Shown here in pieces: positions 1 to 6,432 of a DNA stretch of 6,432 nt. Under the pieces are notes generated by a model. It saw only the letters and a list, made by a program, of their open reading frames with translations. It searched no databases and was not told the origin of the DNA. Made by a program: the position numbers and the translations under genes. The stretch's first letter is position 1, and the number at the start of each line of letters is the position of its first letter. Source of the stretch: a virus (taxonomy: Duplodnaviria; Heunggongvirae; Uroviricota; Caudoviricetes); IMG/VR virus record IMGVR_UViG_2526164634_000019, one strand, 5' to 3'.

Positions 1-1
1 T

Positions 2-1461
2 GTCACCTGCCCGTCAAAATACCACGCCACAACAGAGAACGGTCATCCGAATCCCAAATGGAACGGGGCCACCATGCGCGACTCCAGCGATTACCTGGTT
101 AACACGTTTTTTGCGGCTGTCCGCAAAAAACTGAACCGCGACGGTCTGCGCTGGTATGGCATCCGCACGGTGGAGCCTCACCATGACGGCACCGTGCACT
201 GGCATATGATGGTCTTTGCTCATCCGGAAGAAATCGACACCATTGTGTCCCACACCCGCGATATTGCCATTCAGGAAGACCGCCACGAGCTGGGCGATGA
301 CATAACTCCGCGCTTTAAGGCGGAGTACGTCGACGGCTCAAAAGGCACACCAACCAGCTACATCGCCACCTACATCGGAAGAACCTGGACAGCCACGCCG
401 TGGATGGCATCGACCCGAAAACGGGCAAGCCACGCGTTGACCACGAAACCGGAAAATCAATGGCCGAGAGCGTGGAGCGCGCCATCGGCTGGGCGCGCCT
501 TCACCGGGTCCGCCAGTTCCAGTTCTTTGGCATCCCCTCCCGTCAGGTGTGGCGTGAACTGCGCCGCCTTGCCAGCCAGATGGCACGCAACCCGGAAGGC
601 CCGCAACGACTGAAGGACGACGCAATGGATGCGGTACTCGCTGCCGCTGATGCCGGGTGTTTTGCCTCCTACATTGAAAAACAGGGTGGCGTACTTGTTC
701 CACGCAAAGACTACCTGATTCGCACCGCCTACGACCTCGCAGATGAGCTGAACGATTACGGCGAACAGAGCGTACAGATTTACGGGATCTGGTCACCACT
801 CATCGGGGAGTCCTCCCGTGTGTGCACGCATCCGGATAACTGGAAGCTGGTAAGACGTAAACCGGAAGCGGAAGACAGCGCCCGCGAAAATGGTTTTGAC
901 CTTCAGGGCGGCCCTGCCGCCCCTTGGACTCGTGGCAATAACTGTCCCCGTGTACAGGAAACAGGCAACAACGGGACAGAACAGCCGGAAGAACGGCCAG
1001 CACCGTGGCCGCAGCTTCCTGACGGCGTTGAAGTAAATGAATGGATGCGCTCACTGAAACGGCACGAACGCCGGGCGCTGATGCGTTCGCTTCGTGACAA
1101 ACAGGCAAAAAACAGCAGCGATGAAATGCAGAACTGGACACAGAGCCGCAAACAGCAGCGGCCTTTGCCTGATAACCACGAGTTACTCGCTAAAGAATGG
1201 CGGGAGTCTGCTGAATCTCTCGGCCTGCATATCGGTGAACAACAGATGCAGCACCTGTTACGGGGCGGCAGCCTGTACGTTGACGGCAGCATCATTGCAC
1301 CGCAGGGATTTGAAATTGTACGCAAACCGGATACCCGCCCGGACAGCCGAATCACGCAGCTCTGGCAGCGTCTGAGCCGTAATCATGGCGTAAGCAGCAC
1401 GGAGATCCGCCATAACCCGGTCGCCAGCTATCTGGCACAGCTGGGGGCGATCAGACCCTGA
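2..1461 (+). pseudogene. HUH rolling-circle replication endonuclease (phage P2 gpA family); 5' end outside window; apparent 1-bp frameshift near 377-381
   Basis: Frame 2 is open from the window edge and gives ...TCPSKYHATTENGHP...GIRTVEPHHDGTVHWHMMVF (HUH motif HWH) ...GTPTSYIATYIG (paired catalytic Tyr, YxxxY). At GGAAG (377-381) this frame becomes low-complexity Ala/Ser/Arg-rich and stops at 613. Frame 1, closed by a TAA at 316-318, takes over at 379 with protein-like KNLDSHAVDGIDPKTGKPRVDHETGK... and runs to TGA at 1459-1461. Restoring one A (GGAAAG) would give a continuous YIATYIGKNLDS, analogous to phiX174 gpA YVAKYVNKK. ORF track pieces are 74..613 and 400..1461. Confidence 0.75.
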
Positions 1462-1507
1462 AGCCGCCGCACGCCTGGCATCCACACTTCAGCAGGACCA
1501 GAACACC

Positions 1508-1711
1508 ATGAAAACACCCGTTACCGTGCTTTCTGACATGCTGCGCGCCATCCGCGACGCAGAGCACGCACAGAGAATCAGTGAAACCACTGAACGCGCC
1601 AGCCGCAAAGCAGACCTGCTGCGGGGTGGCCTGACCAGTGGAAACAAAAAACAGACAGAAACGGGACTCACGAATCCCGTAAATGAGCAAAAAACGCGCA
1701 GTGATATATGA
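1508..1711 (+). CDS. hypothetical small protein (67 aa), basic/hydrophilic, downstream of gene A
   Basis: ATG at 1508 with a weak AGGA 12 nt upstream. Occupies the position of small ORFs that follow A in P2-like phages. Its 3' end overlaps the first palindromic site. No recognisable domain; could be non-coding. Confidence 0.3.
   Translation: MKTPVTVLSDMLRAIRDAEHAQRISETTERASRKADLLRGGLTSGNKKQTETGLTNPVNEQKTRSDI
1661..1680. promoter_or_regulatory. 20-bp palindromic operator-like site ACGGGACT-CACG-AATCCCGT (one mismatch)
   Basis: Inverted repeat read directly: 8-bp arms separated by 4 bp. Near-identical to the site at 1734-1753 and 73 bp (about 7 helical turns) away from it. Confidence 0.5.
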
Positions 1712-1733
1712 AGCGCGCACAAAACAGGCAAAA

Positions 1734-1753
1734 ACGGGATTTCAGAATCCCGT
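1734..1753. promoter_or_regulatory. 20-bp perfect palindromic operator-like site ACGGGATT-TCAG-AATCCCGT overlapping the putative stbA promoter
   Basis: Perfect 8-bp inverted arms with 4-bp spacer, 35 bp upstream of the stbA ATG. Flanked by a possible -35 TTCAGA and an AT-rich -10 (TAATTAAT). Candidate binding site for the StbB/ParR-like protein (autoregulation or centromere) or for another repressor. Confidence 0.5.
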
Positions 1754-1787
1754 AAACGATTAATTAATCAACATAAGGAAAATCGAC

Positions 1788-2747
1788 ATGAAAATTTGTA
1801 TCGACGACGGCTCCACCAACATCAAGCTGGCATGGACTGAGAACGGCGAACGCCGCAACGCCATCAGCCCGAACAGCTTCAAGTCGGAATGGTCTGCGCC
1901 GTTCGGTGGCACGCAGCCCGCGAACTACATGCTTGATGGCGTGCGCTATGGTTTTGATCCGGTCAGCGATCGCTTTGTCCAGACGACCGACACGCAATAC
2001 CAGTACAGCGATGTGAATGTCATTGCCATTCATCACGCGCTGGTCAAATCAGGCATCACACCACAGGAGGTGGATGTGGTTGTCACCCTGCCACTGAGCG
2101 AGTATTTCGACACAAACGCACAGCCGGACATGGCCAACATCAACCGCAAAAAAGCGAACGTTATGCGCCCGGTGGAATACCAGAACGGCGAAGCATTCAC
2201 TATCCGTAATGTACGGGTTATGCCTGAATCCATTCCGGCTGGCTTTAAAGCACTGGCTGACATGAGTCCGTTTGAATCCCTGCTGATTGTGGATTTAGGT
2301 GGAACCACGCTGGATGTGGCAAAGGTTCAGGGACAACTGGCAGGTATCAGCCAGGTGTTTTGCGATCCACACGTAGGCGTTTCCCTGATGGCCGATGCAG
2401 TACTGTCGGTGATGGCCACTAACGGTATGCGTACCAGTCACCACATCGCCAATACCATTATCGAACATCGCCATGATGAAGCCTGGCTGCGCCAGCACAT
2501 CCACAATGACGCGCATTACGCCAGCCTGATGGCGGTTATTCGTGAAAAGGAAGAAACACTGAAACAACGCGTGATCCGCGCGCTGGCGGGTTTTTCGGGT
2601 TACGGGCGGGTGATGCTTGTCGGTGGAGGGGCGGAGATTGTGGCACCCGCTATCCGCGAAGTCTGCGGAGTTAATGCGACTTTCATCGCGGACGGGGTGC
2701 CACAGTTTGCTCTGGTTAATGGGCTGTACGCAATGGACAAGGAGTAA
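1788..2747 (+). CDS. stbA: actin-like ATPase of type II plasmid partition systems (StbA/ParM family)
   Basis: 319-aa ORF with SD AAGGA 8 nt upstream of the ATG. N-terminus MKICIDDGSTNIKLAW and motifs VMPESIPAG, LIVDLGGTTLD, VMLVGGGAE, LVNG match the actin-fold phosphate/adenosine motifs and my recollection of R100 StbA (MLVFIDDGSTNIKLQW...). Not verified by database search. Confidence 0.85.
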   Translation: MKICIDDGSTNIKLAWTENGERRNAISPNSFKSEWSAPFGGTQPANYMLDGVRYGFDPVSDRFVQTTDTQYQYSDVNVIAIHHALVKSGITPQEVDVVVTLPLSEYFDTNAQPDMANINRKKANVMRPVEYQNGEAFTIRNVRVMPESIPAGFKALADMSPFESLLIVDLGGTTLDVAKVQGQLAGISQVFCDPHVGVSLMADAVLSVMATNGMRTSHHIANTIIEHRHDEAWLRQHIHNDAHYASLMAVIREKEETLKQRVIRALAGFSGYGRVMLVGGGAEIVAPAIREVCGVNATFIADGVPQFALVNGLYAMDKE

Positions 2748-2751
2748 ACCA

Positions 2752-3066
2752 ATGACGACACCAACCAGACGGATAAGTTTCTATCTGAAGCCCGCCGCCG
2801 TCAAGAGTGAACAGGAGGCGTGCAATTACCTCGATAGCCTGCCAGCCTCCGAACGCAGCCGCGCGCAACGCGCGGCCTTTCTGGCTGGGCTAGCGCTCAT
2901 AAAGCGCAACCCAGCATTTACCTACTGGATGGCCGAATGGCCAGAGGACAACCTCCCCTTCAATACCGTTAGCATCAAGGAAACATACCAGGATAATCAG
3001 CCTAGCGGAGTTGAATGCAATTTTTATAAAATAAAAAAGAATATTCAGACCTTATTCCCAGAATAA
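2752..3066 (+). CDS. stbB: StbB/ParR-like partition adaptor (likely ribbon-helix-helix DNA-binding protein), 104 aa
   Basis: ATG at 2752 preceded by SD AAGGAG (2739-2744), 4 bp after the stbA stop, so translationally coupled. The track ORF 2617..3066 uses an unlikely TTG start inside stbA. Sequence MTTPTRRISFYLKPAAV...SLPASERSRAQRAAFLAGLALIK resembles StbB/ParR N-terminal regions as I recall them. The last 25 or so codons lie in AT-rich DNA. Confidence 0.75.
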   Translation: MTTPTRRISFYLKPAAVKSEQEACNYLDSLPASERSRAQRAAFLAGLALIKRNPAFTYWMAEWPEDNLPFNTVSIKETYQDNQPSGVECNFYKIKKNIQTLFPE

Positions 3067-3114
3067 TCTGATAATTGTATGTGAACTAATAAAATACAGA
3101 CCAACACATCATTC

Positions 3115-3139
3115 TGGCACCCTTGCTAACAGGGTGCCA
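3115..3139. terminator. hairpin between convergent genes (9-bp stem TGGCACCCT/AGGGTGCCA, 7-nt loop), probable bidirectional terminator
   Basis: Perfect inverted repeat read directly, followed on the plus strand by TGTTTC. Located 49 bp after the stbB stop and 10 bp after the stop of the minus-strand gene ending at 3150. Confidence 0.5.
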
Positions 3140-3149
3140 ATGTTTCAAA

Positions 3150-3992
3150 TCATGATGAAATTGCCGAAGTTTTTTTATCGTGCTGAAGTACCGCAAATGC
3201 CATTAAAACCTCAAGAGAATAGCGGCGATAATACTTAACAAAACCATAATAAAATACTCGGGATGCAGCAATACAAAACAAGAGAAGAAAACAAAAAGGT
3301 AACAGTCTGATATTTATATCTATTAAAAAGGATAGAAGGAGCAGGAACATAAGCAACCAGACTGAAGCGAGAAAAACAAATGTAATGTTTCTACAAAAAC
3401 CATACAAAGCAACATAGTTTTGCATTTTCACCTGATGATTTTTAGAATGTTCATACACATAATGATAAGCAAGGCGAAAAAGATCGCCCCTCAAGCCCTT
3501 ACGTCGATATAGCGTAGATACAGAAAAAACATTTATATAACCATCTCGTATTTGCGGCCAAAAGACTTTAATAAGTATAGAATGCAGTGTGGTTTTATGA
3601 TGTTCTGCTTTATCAAAAGCTGATACAGGAAATAAAAAAACTCCACGAATAAAATTAACTATACTGAACTTAGTATTATGTCGTTTTATTTTCAGGGAGC
3701 TTCTTTTAGAAAACAGATAAATTGAAGGATACCCAAGTTTACTGTTCATGTATTTTTCAATTAAACAGGATGATAGAATAGATATGAAGTGACCTGAAAT
3801 ATATGATAGAACGATTAATACCACATATATAAATACACTTATTATTTCTTTATATTTCAGGATATGGTTAAGAATACCTTCTATATAAACAGGGTTAATT
3901 TCAATAGAAAACAAAAAAAGGATAAACAGGAATAACCCACCTGGAATTAGATAGCCCAAAAAGTCATAAAATGAAAACGGATTCTGTGTCAC
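3150..3992 (-). CDS. hypothetical polytopic membrane protein (280 aa; about 4 predicted TM helices flanking a roughly 125-aa basic central domain)
   Basis: Long minus-strand ORF in AT-rich DNA with a GTG start at 3992 preceded by SD-like AGGGGGAA. Strongly hydrophobic segments at roughly aa 9-29, 49-73, 205-227 and 233-255. Starts 39 bp downstream of the preceding gene stop, so it looks operonic. No recognisable catalytic motif by eye. Confidence 0.7.
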   Translation of the reverse strand: MTQNPFSFYDFLGYLIPGGLFLFILFLFSIEINPVYIEGILNHILKYKEIISVFIYVVLIVLSYISGHFISILSSCLIEKYMNSKLGYPSIYLFSKRSSLKIKRHNTKFSIVNFIRGVFLFPVSAFDKAEHHKTTLHSILIKVFWPQIRDGYINVFSVSTLYRRKGLRGDLFRLAYHYVYEHSKNHQVKMQNYVALYGFCRNITFVFLASVWLLMFLLLLSFLIDINIRLLPFCFLLLFCIAASRVFYYGFVKYYRRYSLEVLMAFAVLQHDKKTSAISS

Positions 3993-4031
3993 ACTTCCCC
4001 CTGTGTTACTTGTAAATTAAAGGGTAAAACA

Positions 4032-4529
4032 TTATTTGTTTTTCCGTAAAGGATTAGCTTTCCATCTTCTTACTAACCATTCGAATTCTTGATATGTAGT
4101 ATCCGAATTAATGCTTTCTCTGATTGCTTTAATTAATGGCTCGGCAATATCATATGTCTCTACAACTGTTGTGTAAGATGTTCTTTTTATCATTTTTTCA
4201 TCATAAATACCTTCACGAATACTTACAGCAACTCGCTCGTAAAAATTTAAAATATATTGAAATTTTCGACGCTCGGCCATTTCTTCATCTGTTATTATGC
4301 AACCATCACAAGGAAAAACATAAGAACGAAATGATTTGCCTGAACGATGCACTTGTTTCAGGGTATGCAATGACTCTATATATTGCATATCTTGCCGACT
4401 CTCAAAAAGAAAGTTGGCCGTTTGAGTTTTTTTTGCGGTACGCACATTGTAGATAATGGTTCCAATGGCAACCAAAACGCCAAGCAGAACAATAGCATTG
4501 CTGATGATTTGTAGTGTTATTGGGTTCAT
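4032..4529 (-). CDS. hypothetical single-pass membrane protein (165 aa; N-terminal TM helix plus about 135-aa soluble domain)
   Basis: ATG at 4529. N-terminal ITLQIISNAIVLLGVLVAIGTIIY is a clear TM/signal-anchor segment, followed by a charged soluble domain. AT-rich and co-oriented with the downstream polytopic membrane protein gene. Confidence 0.7.
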   Translation of the reverse strand: MNPITLQIISNAIVLLGVLVAIGTIIYNVRTAKKTQTANFLFESRQDMQYIESLHTLKQVHRSGKSFRSYVFPCDGCIITDEEMAERRKFQYILNFYERVAVSIREGIYDEKMIKRTSYTTVVETYDIAEPLIKAIRESINSDTTYQEFEWLVRRWKANPLRKNK

Positions 4530-4549
4530 CCTATTTCATCCATAAAAAA

Positions 4550-4570
4550 GGCGGGGAGCAAATCCCCGCC
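4550..4570 (-). terminator. intrinsic-terminator-like hairpin (8-bp GC-rich stem GGCGGGGA/TCCCCGCC, 5-nt loop) followed on the minus strand by T6
   Basis: Read directly. On the minus strand the hairpin is followed by TTTTTT (plus 4544-4549) and lies only about 14 nt upstream of the ATG at 4529, which leaves no room for a promoter between terminator and gene. Confidence 0.55.
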
Positions 4571-4590
4571 TCATTAGAGGTCAACGTAGC

Positions 4591-4626
4591 TTAGAAACCA
4601 TCAAATTCATCATACATTTTTTTCAT
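4591..4626 (-). other. candidate 11-codon leader ORF (MKKMYDEFDGF) with strong SD, upstream of the terminator hairpin
   Basis: Minus-strand ATG at 4626-4624 preceded by GAGGGGG with a 5-nt spacer; stop TAA at 4593-4591, 20 nt before the hairpin. The arrangement promoter, leader ORF, terminator, structural genes resembles an attenuator. Could be coincidental. Confidence 0.25.
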
Positions 4627-5177: not shown

Positions 5178-5747
5178 TCAGGATGTGGGCTGGGTGTCTA
5201 ACAGTGCGTAAGGGTTAAAGCGGATCACCTCTTCGCCAAGCCAGTCATTGATGTGCTTCATGGCCTCCATGACGGGCATCAGCTCGTTAATTGCGTAAAC
5301 CCGCGCGGCCTTCTCCACATCACCAAACGCACTTTTTTCGCCCGGCATCGCCCCCATCAGTTGCGGCGGAACGCGGTGCGCAGCCAGCACATCATCACGG
5401 GATGCCGCCTTAACATTCATGAACTCATCCTTTGCGGTGATCTGCTGGAACGGCAAAATTTGCACCCCTTCTTTGCCCCCGTTGGGCGCATGAATGAGCA
5501 CGTTTTTAAATGCACCACCACCACGCGCACCCTGTAACGTTTCTTTCAGGGAGTCCATGCTTTCGCGGTTTACCTGCGCTGCACCGATGTAGATGATGCA
5601 CCCGGCGTGGGATCCGTTGTCGTAGTACAGTTTTCTGAACATGTCCGCCGAATGAGAAAGGCTGGCCGAGAGTAATGCGCCAAGATATTCCGGCATGCCG
5701 TAGATTTCCTGGTTAATATCCGGATTCATCAGGTGGCACACTTTGCC
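5178..5747 (-). CDS. phage portal protein (P2 gpQ-like), C-terminal part only; 5' portion separated by IS10 insertion
   Basis: Minus-strand ORF ending at the stop at 5180-5178. Translation ...HRVPPQLMGAMPGEKSAFGDVEKAARVYAINEL...WLGEEVIRFNPYALLDT resembles the C-terminus of P2-family portal proteins (from memory). The frame runs straight into the IS10 terminal repeat at 5748 and hits a stop inside IS10 at 5760-5762, so the gene is interrupted. Confidence 0.7.
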   Translation of the reverse strand, partial: GKVCHLMNPDINQEIYGMPEYLGALLSASLSHSADMFRKLYYDNGSHAGCIIYIGAAQVNRESMDSLKETLQGARGGGAFKNVLIHAPNGGKEGVQILPFQQITAKDEFMNVKAASRDDVLAAHRVPPQLMGAMPGEKSAFGDVEKAARVYAINELMPVMEAMKHINDWLGEEVIRFNPYALLDTQPTS

Positions 5748-5770
5748 CTGATGAATCCCCTAATGATTTT
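5748..5770. repeat. IS10 outside-end terminal inverted repeat
   Basis: Exact match to the 23-bp IS10 outside end as remembered. Confidence 0.85.
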
Positions 5771-5793
5771 TATCAAAATCATTAAGTTAAGGT

Positions 5794-5862
5794 AGATACA
5801 CATCTTGTCATATGATCAAATGGTTTCGCCAAAAATCAATAATCAGACAACAAAATGTGCGA
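5794..5862 (-). ncRNA. IS10 RNA-OUT antisense RNA (predicted position)
   Basis: Placed from established IS10 biology: pOUT starts near element position 115 and RNA-OUT runs about 69 nt outward, overlapping the transposase start (RNA-IN). The Dam site GATC at 5814-5817 lies in the pIN region. Not verified independently. Confidence 0.4.
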
Positions 5863-6432
5863 ACTCGATATTTTACACGACTCTCTTTACCAATTCTGCC
5901 CCGAATTACACTTAAAACGACTCAACAGCTTAACGTTGGCTTGCCACGCCTTACTTGACTGTAAAACTCTCACTCTTACCGAACTTGGCCGTAACCTGCC
6001 AACCAAAGCGAGAACAAAACATAACATCAAACGAATCGACCGATTGTTAGGTAATCGTCACCTCCACAAAGAGCGACTCGCTGTATACCGTTGGCATGCT
6101 AGCTTTATCTGTTCGGGCAATACGATGCCCATTGTACTTGTTGACTGGTCTGATATCCGTGAGCAAAAACGGCTTATGGTATTGCGAGCTTCAGTCGCAC
6201 TACACGGTCGTTCTGTTACTCTTTATGAGAAAGCGTTCCCGCTTTCAGAGCAATGTTCAAAGAAAGCTCATGACCAATTTCTAGCCGACCTTGCGAGCAT
6301 TCTACCGAGTAACACCACACCGCTCATTGTCAGTGATGCTGGCTTTAAAGTGCCATGGTATAAATCCGTTGAGAAGCTGGGTTGGTACTGGTTAAGTCGA
6401 GTAAGAGGAAAAGTACAATATGCAGACCTAGG
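5855..6432 (+). CDS. IS10 transposase, N-terminal 192 codons; 3' end beyond window
   Basis: ATG at 5855; frame open to the window end. Translation MCELDILHDSLYQFCPELHLKRLNSLTLACHALLDCKTLTLTELGRNLPTKARTKHNIKRIDRLLGNRHLHKERLAVYRWHASF... matches IS10 transposase. Absent from the ORF track because no stop falls in the window. Confidence 0.9.
   Translation, partial: MCELDILHDSLYQFCPELHLKRLNSLTLACHALLDCKTLTLTELGRNLPTKARTKHNIKRIDRLLGNRHLHKERLAVYRWHASFICSGNTMPIVLVDWSDIREQKRLMVLRASVALHGRSVTLYEKAFPLSEQCSKKAHDQFLADLASILPSNTTPLIVSDAGFKVPWYKSVEKLGWYWLSRVRGKVQYADL

Follow-up and report, generated by a model that had tools for sequence, protein, structure and literature searches.

Two nearly identical 20-bp palindromes stand directly upstream of the parM–parR gene pair of a P2-like phage, and comparison with related loci indicates that they are probably bound by ParR and serve the cassette as operator and as a reduced centromere (parC). 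We would class the locus as an architecturally new form of ParMRC, in a phage cassette that is known but uncharacterised. The sequences of the two sites, their uniqueness, their position and spacing across clades, their linkage to the cassette and the identities of ParM and ParR are established here. All positions refer to the window, the whole 6,432-bp stretch of DNA that was analysed, in which the relevant features are as follows.

1508–1711, plus strand: the last 67 codons, at the C-terminal end, of the replication endonuclease gene A, cut off from the remainder of gene A by a frameshift; not a gene in its own right.
1645–1686, plus strand: repeat unit 1 (42-nt repeat family D1), consisting of the A-rich leader CAAAAAACAGACAGAA, site 1 and TAAATGA.
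1661–1680, no strand assigned: site 1, a 20-bp palindrome, ACGGGACT-CACG-AATCCCGT, with one arm mismatch (C1667), within the last codons of gene A.
1718–1759, plus strand: repeat unit 2, consisting of the leader CACAAAACAGGCAAAA, site 2 and TAAACGA.
1734–1753, no strand assigned: site 2, a perfect 20-bp palindrome (8+8), ACGGGATT-TCAG-AATCCCGT, 35–54 bp upstream of the parM ATG.
1763–1771, plus strand: ATTAATCAA, a candidate −10 element that the promoter scan did not call, invariant in the alignment of three clade A lineages and almost so among P88-like copies.
1775–1779, plus strand: Shine–Dalgarno sequence AAGGA of parM, read from the sequence and conserved in the cross-clade alignment.
1788–2747, plus strand: parM (stbA), actin-like partition ATPase of 319 amino acids (PF06406, E = 1.8e-82; PF21523, E = 3.7e-68).
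2752–3066, plus strand: parR (stbB), predicted ribbon-helix-helix adaptor of 104 amino acids (PF10784, E = 2.8e-28), the presumed binder of sites 1 and 2.

Read from the window, site 1 (ACGGGACTCACGAATCCCGT) stands in ...GAAACGGGACTCACGAATCCCGTAAAT... and site 2 (ACGGGATTTCAGAATCCCGT) in ...AAAACGGGATTTCAGAATCCCGTAAAC..., at −127 to −108 and −54 to −35 relative to parM, respectively. The centres are 73 bp apart (about seven helical turns), which confirms the positions and spacing in the original prediction of two near-identical inverted repeats, one perfect and one with a single mismatch. The pattern ACGGGATT-N4-AATCCCGT, with up to two mismatches allowed, matched the 6,432-bp window at sites 1 and 2 only, and a match was found in 0 of 200 dinucleotide-preserving shuffles. 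A search for the palindrome elsewhere in the prophage, as had been proposed with that prediction, was run on the complete 35.8-kb genome of Escherichia phage P88 with up to three mismatches, and the same two places were the sole matches. Each palindrome forms the core of a 42-nt direct repeat that the original prediction lacked (copies 81% identical, spacing 73, located with a repeat finder), and the two units together constitute a repeated, parC-like cis site directly upstream of parM. The half-sites themselves are inverted, and a repeat search of the window found no direct 10–11-bp iteron array of the kind that makes up R1-type parC; the earlier remark that the arrangement departs from the usual direct-repeat ParR centromere was correct. 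Besides the inverted half-sites, weak degenerate A-rich boxes are present (AAAACAGAC, AAAACGCGC and AAAACAGGC), roughly in helical phase (AAA periodicity, p ~0.04; 36 of 1,000 shuffles). A-tract phasing was also considered as a sign of R1-like intrinsic curvature and was rejected, being marginal here and absent in the related loci of Plesiomonas and Hafnia.

The genes downstream of the palindromes encode recognizable ParMRC components. ParM matched R1 ParM structures (PDB 1mwk) with E = 3.2e-92, identifying it as an actin-like ATPase, and the adaptor gene parR follows immediately, its start lying 4 nt past the parM stop. ParR gave a weak match to pB171 ParR/StbB (PDB 2jd3; E = 0.012); its N-terminal strand TRRISFYLKP and C-terminal KKNIQTLFPE motif are conserved, and the C-terminal K-x-N-x-x-x-L-F-P was kept in the eight diverse homologues examined. 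This C-terminal motif matches the tail with which R1 ParR docks on ParM (PDB 4a62), and the analogy suggests that the phage ParR may still couple DNA to ParM filaments.

Positions 1–2806 of the window are 98% identical to P88 (Xuanwuvirus, Peduoviridae, P2-like), which integrates in the conventional P2 manner and encodes integrase, C and Cox. Genes are ordered gene A (PF05840), parM, parR, low-GC cargo genes and a truncated portal gene (PF04860), which places the cassette in the gpA–gpQ accessory hotspot between gene A and the portal gene Q. Further along the window, IS10 RNA-OUT at 5793–5862 was the only match in an Rfam search. The gene A–parM–parR segment was present in 1,371 of 5,426 complete E. 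coli genomes. About one quarter of E. coli P2-like phages have been described as carrying 'a putative plasmid partitioning system' in the gpA–gpQ hotspot, which was not analysed further in that study (Rousset et al. 2022, PMC9122126), and our literature search returned no description of these sites or of the function of P88 ParMR.

Site 1 overlaps the small open reading frame at 1508–1711, which the original prediction regarded as possibly non-coding. It is instead the last 67 codons of gene A, ending at the same stop as in P88, where gene A is annotated as a 940-amino-acid protein with its stop 77 bp before parM (window 1709–1711); by translation comparison, the 67 residues are identical to the end of the P88 protein. 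The frame looks separate because two 1-base indels break gene A in the window (compared with P88 and three further relatives, one base is deleted near 378/379 and one inserted near 1449). An independent small gene at this place was ruled out, given that the frame has no Pfam match and equals the C-terminal end of P88 gene A.

A recombinant locus (L093) separates the palindromes from gene A. In this locus gene A ends ~460 bp earlier and an unrelated 155-amino-acid open reading frame enters the cassette instead, gaining the identical last 17 residues (ending in KQTKTGFTNPVNEQKTRSDI and the stop). Nucleotide homology between L093 and the window sets in where repeat unit 1 starts, which assigns both sites to the parMR cassette and not to gene A; the translation of site 1 is therefore incidental, and the final ~17 codons are a read-in tail acquired by any upstream open reading frame. 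The gene A tail also tolerates non-synonymous changes in the population (L/F, V/A, S/R and alternative endings). In the phage collection searched, no phage had a P88-type gene A 3′ end without parMR, and the boundary of the cassette was taken from L093 instead.

The recombination junction of L093 coincides with repeat unit 1, which also suits a reading in which the sites are recombination hot spots at the cassette boundary or are bound by a protein other than ParR (a phage regulator such as C, Cox or an Ogr-like protein, or a host factor). This reading gains from the characterised ParR proteins of R1 and pB171, which bind direct and not inverted repeats (PMC9426499). We nevertheless judge it unlikely: unlike the operators of global phage regulators, the palindromes occur nowhere else in the P88 genome, and they accompany parMR in phages that are otherwise different in gene content. 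The dyad of P2 late promoters is TGT-N12-ACA, which the motif does not resemble. As for hot spots, the right edge of the cassette, where divergence starts within parR, carries no matching repeat.

The main evidence for reading the palindromes as putative ParR sites is the conservation of their position and spacing across clades. In Plesiomonas (L059) and Hafnia (L056), P2-like prophages encode ParM homologues with 62% identity; synteny from gene A to the portal gene is kept there, and the upstream DNA is otherwise unalignable with that of P88. Pairs of GGG-N10-CCC nevertheless occur at −125 and −52 in P88 (spacing 73), at −131 and −59 in Plesiomonas (72) and at −128 and −55 in Hafnia (73). The Plesiomonas elements (GCGGGACAACAAAAACCCG at −131 and GCGGGACAACACTAACCCA at −59) were found independently as a 26-nt direct repeat with a spacing of 72, and those of Hafnia are TGGGATTGAGGAAACCCA at −128 and CGGGTTCATTAAATCCCA at −55. 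Because GGG-N10-CCC is rare in these loci (~1 per 5–7 kb, or 3–5 per ~7-kb locus with the sites themselves counted), the matching positions in three clades are not a product of chance. MAFFT aligned both sites in register with no gap between them, and the invariant columns comprised the GGG and CCC triplets, the ATTAATCAA box and the Shine–Dalgarno sequence. The three clades also share the ParR strand TRR(I/V)SFYL; ParR as the binder is supported because this strand type and the cis box differ together between the phage clades and their plasmid relatives.

Conservation of the palindromes in related elements, one of the conditions set with the original prediction, held for the position and spacing of GGG-N10-CCC and failed for the hairpins and the flanking DNA: in Plesiomonas and Hafnia the hairpins are not preserved and only the GGG and CCC triplets persist across the 10-nt gap. 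Viral-contig searches with the Hafnia and Plesiomonas ParM queries added no further members of those clades, so that each rests on one or two loci. In clade B phages (Serratia/Enterobacter type; ParM 53–58%), AAAACGGGAAC is kept as a long-range inverted repeat with 19-bp arms. Because this arrangement is quite different, the paired-site architecture is not universal, and the cis architecture is plastic within the ParMR family.

The absence of the hairpins in Plesiomonas and Hafnia bears on two readings in which the palindromes act through the folding of RNA. On the minus strand both sites look like intrinsic Rho-independent terminators, for example for an antisense RNA starting within parM, each with an 8-bp hairpin and a T-rich run (ACGGGATTCTGAAATCCCGT TTTTGCCTGT and ACGGGATTCGTGAGTCCCGT TTCTGTCTGT); the hairpins fold at −10.2 kcal/mol, and the A-rich leaders, which give the minus-strand T-runs, are nearly invariant among P88-like copies. 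Such a function is highly improbable, as no minus-strand gene or promoter-like site converges on the palindromes and two tandem terminators 73 bp apart that are copies of each other would be unusual. The hairpin with its T-run is lost at Plesiomonas site 1 and at both Hafnia sites, where minus-strand folds were no better than shuffles (z = +0.26 for Plesiomonas site 1; z = −0.78 and −1.31 for the Hafnia sites), and at Plesiomonas site 2 (z = −2.21) most of the low energy is contributed by pairing of the flanks around a 10-nt loop. Plesiomonas and Hafnia lack the A/T-run, yet carry GGG-N10-CCC at the same positions.

On the plus strand, the palindromes could form hairpins in a read-through transcript from gene A to parM, with a role in processing, stability or attenuation. 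The predicted folds are favourable (−9.0 and −11.4 kcal/mol; z = −2.95 and −2.32), and co-transcription from the early promoter is plausible given the 77-bp gap between gene A and parM and the lack of a detected promoter. We consider this reading very unlikely, since Plesiomonas and Hafnia have not kept the hairpins and Rfam, searched with the whole window under a permissive threshold, gave no match at the sites. Arm substitutions among the 68 unique P88-like sequences are transitions, some of which keep G–U pairing on the plus strand and others only on the minus strand, a pattern with no strand-consistent signal.

Variation within the P88-like population was assessed in 146 copies, which comprised 68 unique 150-bp upstream sequences. 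Both palindromes were at the same positions in all 146. The commonest form of site 1 is the perfect palindrome ACGGGATTCACAAATCCCGT, so that the mismatch in the window is a minority allele; one common allele of site 2 has a broken arm (AATCCTGT). Among the classes of columns, the 4-bp centres varied most (mean heterozygosity 0.164 versus 0.062 overall, p = 0.013) and the CGGGA/TCCCG cores least (0.032). The 150-bp region is well conserved as a whole, and neither the arms (p = 0.32) nor the cores (p = 0.09) fell significantly below it in variability, so that the population test of constraint gives little support to the sites.

The original prediction placed the second palindrome over the likely stbA promoter, which was not upheld: a sigma-70 consensus scan of 1400–3200 found no promoter near or between the palindromes. 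Manual inspection found only a weak ATTAAT at 1763–1768, a candidate −10 element; if it is used, site 2 would cover the −35/spacer region. Transcription of parM by read-through from gene A and transcription from its own promoter at ATTAAT are equally possible. With no consensus promoter found at or between the sites, the operator role is unanchored.

In the ParR-site model, the ParR encoded 1 kb downstream would bind each 20-bp palindrome through the core CGGGA-N8-TCCCG. Each palindrome would take two ribbon-helix-helix ParR dimers on one helical face, the inverted half-sites being ~12 bp apart centre to centre, and the result would be two ParR complexes 73 bp apart, about seven turns, a short way upstream of parM. 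If R1 parC is a guide, ParR bound there may have an operator role, repressing parMR transcription, and a centromere role, offering its C-terminal tails to ParM filament ends. The layout is a reduced palindromic parC, with four half-sites as compared with ten direct 11-bp iterons in R1, a number that may not suffice for assembly of a segrosome. The comparative evidence fits the operator and centromere pair for a StbB/ParR-like protein that was originally proposed, as the layout, the distance to parM and the spacing are kept, the sites move with the cassette in L093, and ParR retains both its predicted ribbon-helix-helix N terminus and its ParM-docking motif.

The small number of half-sites also lends itself to a reading in which the sites are operator-only relics, through which ParR autoregulates while the cassette no longer serves the integrated prophage as a centromere and the half-sites are what is left of a decayed iteron array. 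Only four strong half-sites stand against the ten iterons of R1, the weak degenerate boxes lie roughly in helical phase (AAA periodicity, p ~0.04), and 1,532 of the 1,534 E. coli copies of the segment are on the chromosome. We find this distinctly unlikely. Across clades, ParM is well conserved, as is the ParM-docking tail of ParR; that the two-site layout persists where ParM identity is down to 62% points to a selected architecture rather than to ongoing decay. Moreover, at least one complete P88-like genome has been deposited as a 34.5-kb circular 'plasmid'; this fits the idea of an episomal state in which a centromere would matter, and is not proof of it.

Taken further, the ParR-site model would have P2-like phages carry a streamlined ParMRC whose two-palindrome centromere serves to position or segregate the non-integrated phage genome, whether this is an episome, excised or not yet integrated (a carrier state or facultative phage-plasmid), or replicating DNA, as with CGP3 AlpAC. 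We regard this extension as conceivable but doubtful. If true, the module, carried by about one in four complete E. coli genomes, would be a common and so far overlooked factor determining how prophages are inherited and the partition-based incompatibility of P2-like phages that share a host. Among actin-like segregation machines ParMRC is the textbook case, and its characterised enterobacterial centromeres are direct iteron arrays. A ParM and a ParR with both functional ends, combined with two short palindromes, would help to define the minimal ParR scaffold for filament capture or autoregulation, and a lineage with paired palindromes would show how ribbon-helix-helix adaptors retarget. With the cis sites located, the purpose of this common prophage cassette becomes directly testable.

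Among known systems, R1 is one of the closest. Its parC, located upstream of parM–parR as in other ParMRC systems (PMC2241845, PMC9426499), consists of two sets of five direct 11-bp iterons with a 39-bp promoter core between them, and each iteron takes up about one ParR dimer; the bound ParR shuts down the promoter and also forms the partition complex, acting as autorepressor and centromere binder alike (PMC2241845). Many iterons are needed for full function (PMC9426499, PMC2241845), and all ParR proteins characterised up to a 2022 study bind direct repeats (PMC9426499). The phage cassette shares with R1/NR1 stb the order of cis site, parM and parR, a homologous ParM, a ParR of PF10784 with a similar C-terminal tail, and, with R1, an A-tract-rich cis region in two blocks several helical turns apart. 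It differs in that each block is a single 20-bp palindrome (four half-sites in total) instead of five head-to-tail 11-bp iterons (ten), in that no recognisable promoter lies between the blocks and site 1 is inside the coding tail of the upstream gene, and in that the host element is an integrative P2-like phage and not a plasmid.

Plasmid relatives from Apirhabdus (L050), Erwinia (L006) and Rouxiella (L046) encode ParM proteins 42–62% identical to that of the phage and ParR proteins of the same family, but carry the box TTCTCAAAT where the phages have CGGGATT, together with the ParR strand RRK(L/V/I)(T/Q)(Y/F)Y. The Apirhabdus plasmid has the canonical R1 layout, with 3+3 direct 11-bp iterons (TAGTTCTCAAA) around TTGTTA-N17-TATAAT. 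In the Erwinia and Rouxiella plasmids the plasmid-type box is arranged as palindromes; because the Erwinia plasmid has two of them upstream of parM (TTGCTCTCAATTTGAGAACAA and CATTCTCAATTTGAGACTG, ~41 bp apart), inverted arrangements of ParR boxes exist in the family.

Precedents outside these relatives differ in kind. The chromosomal cParCMR of C. botulinum, reported after that 2022 study, has a cParC with three palindromic repeats, to which cParR binds in EMSA (PMC12270681). It resembles the phage cassette in its ParMR genes, chromosomal context and palindromic parC, and is thus a precedent for ParR on palindromes; it belongs to a distant Firmicute, its cparC is described after cParR, it has three palindromes and not two, and it is likened here by description. 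The omega repressor/ParB of pSM19035 is a ribbon-helix-helix centromere binder and autorepressor that acts on 7-bp heptads in direct or inverted orientation. That a ribbon-helix-helix protein accepts both direct and inverted sub-sites gives a rationale for a ParR lineage switching from iterons to palindromes, although omega is part of a type Ib system (with a ParA Walker ATPase), belongs to a sequence-unrelated family and uses 7-bp units. Finally, AlpA, AlpC and alpS of the Corynebacterium prophage CGP3 have been implicated in the positioning and replication of phage DNA and not in plasmid inheritance (PMC4446434, PMC5539076). CGP3 and the phage cassette alike combine an actin-like filament protein, a DNA-binding adaptor and cis sites in an integrated prophage; the actin-like and adaptor families are unrelated and the phage type is different, so that the likeness is one of functional analogy.

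The prophage copy in the window is defective, because its portal gene is truncated by IS10: insertion of the element has cut the gene to 187 amino acids (5178–5741), and the IS10 outside end (CTGATGAATCCCCTAATGATTTT...) extends from 5748 on, with a match to RNA-OUT (97 bits, E=4.8e-20). Gene A, which encodes the replication endonuclease, differs from its counterparts in Escherichia phage P88 and three other relatives (L219, L060 and L002) by a 1-base deletion near 378/379 and a 1-base insertion near 1449. These indels place ~1070 nt out of frame, which points either to a pseudogene or to sequencing errors.

Features of the window
1–1711: gene A, doubly frameshifted (indels near 378/379 and 1449)
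~904–953: conserved island GGGCGGCCCTGCCGCCCCTTGGACTCGTGGCAATAACTGTCCCCG in gene A
3150–3992, minus strand: multi-pass membrane protein, 280 aa
4032–4529, minus strand: DUF4760 protein (PF15956, E=1.8e-34)
5748–6432: IS10 outside end (RNA-OUT at 5793–5862, minus strand)

In 70 Klebsiella, Salmonella and Yersinia phages of the P2-like group, which are otherwise unalignable, the island inside gene A (~45 bp) retains ~91% identity; it is probably the replication origin or gpA nick site; the replication origin and gpA nick site of P2 lie inside gene A.

Sequence comparison with the parR genes of P88 and L093 (a recombinant with a different ORF before parMR) revealed a mosaic ParR (2752–3066): all P88-like phages have the first ~48 residues (RHH) in common, the middle part occurs as two types (that of the window and that of P88/L093), and the C-terminal ...N-I-x-x-L-F-P-E is kept. 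The cis layout upstream of parM in P2-like phages of the Serratia/Enterobacter type (L146 (2380–2500), L215, L217, L005, L144 and L145) is unlike that of the window: 19-bp arms (GGGAACGATATAGAAAAAT ... ATTTTTCTGTTTCGTTCCC), ~30 bp apart, flank a small central hairpin (for example, AGCCGGACGGCT) with compensatory changes from locus to locus, and a GCCGTTTAAACGGC-like palindrome is situated closer to parM. The contigs L003, L030 and L031, whose labels are Vagococcus, Streptomyces morookaense and 'uncultured Clostridiales', contain parM loci of enterobacterial type that fall into the 97% and 46% identity classes; assembly contamination is the most likely explanation.

One complete P88-like phage genome (L221; NZ_CP148288.1, 1–34461) has the full set of structural genes together with gene A, parMR, hok/gef and the genes for integrase, Cox and repressor. 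Its database entry, from an E. coli strain, is a circular 'plasmid' of 34.5 kb, possibly an episomal form. P88 itself also carries a Hok/Gef-family toxin gene (L220, 34928–35068), a second plasmid-type maintenance module in one integrative phage.

Downstream of parR, low-GC (34%) minus-strand cargo occupies 3100–4600. The DUF4760 and membrane-protein genes are situated in the gpA–gpQ hotspot, a position tied to anti-phage systems (Rousset et al. 2022, PMC9122126), where P88 itself has other genes.
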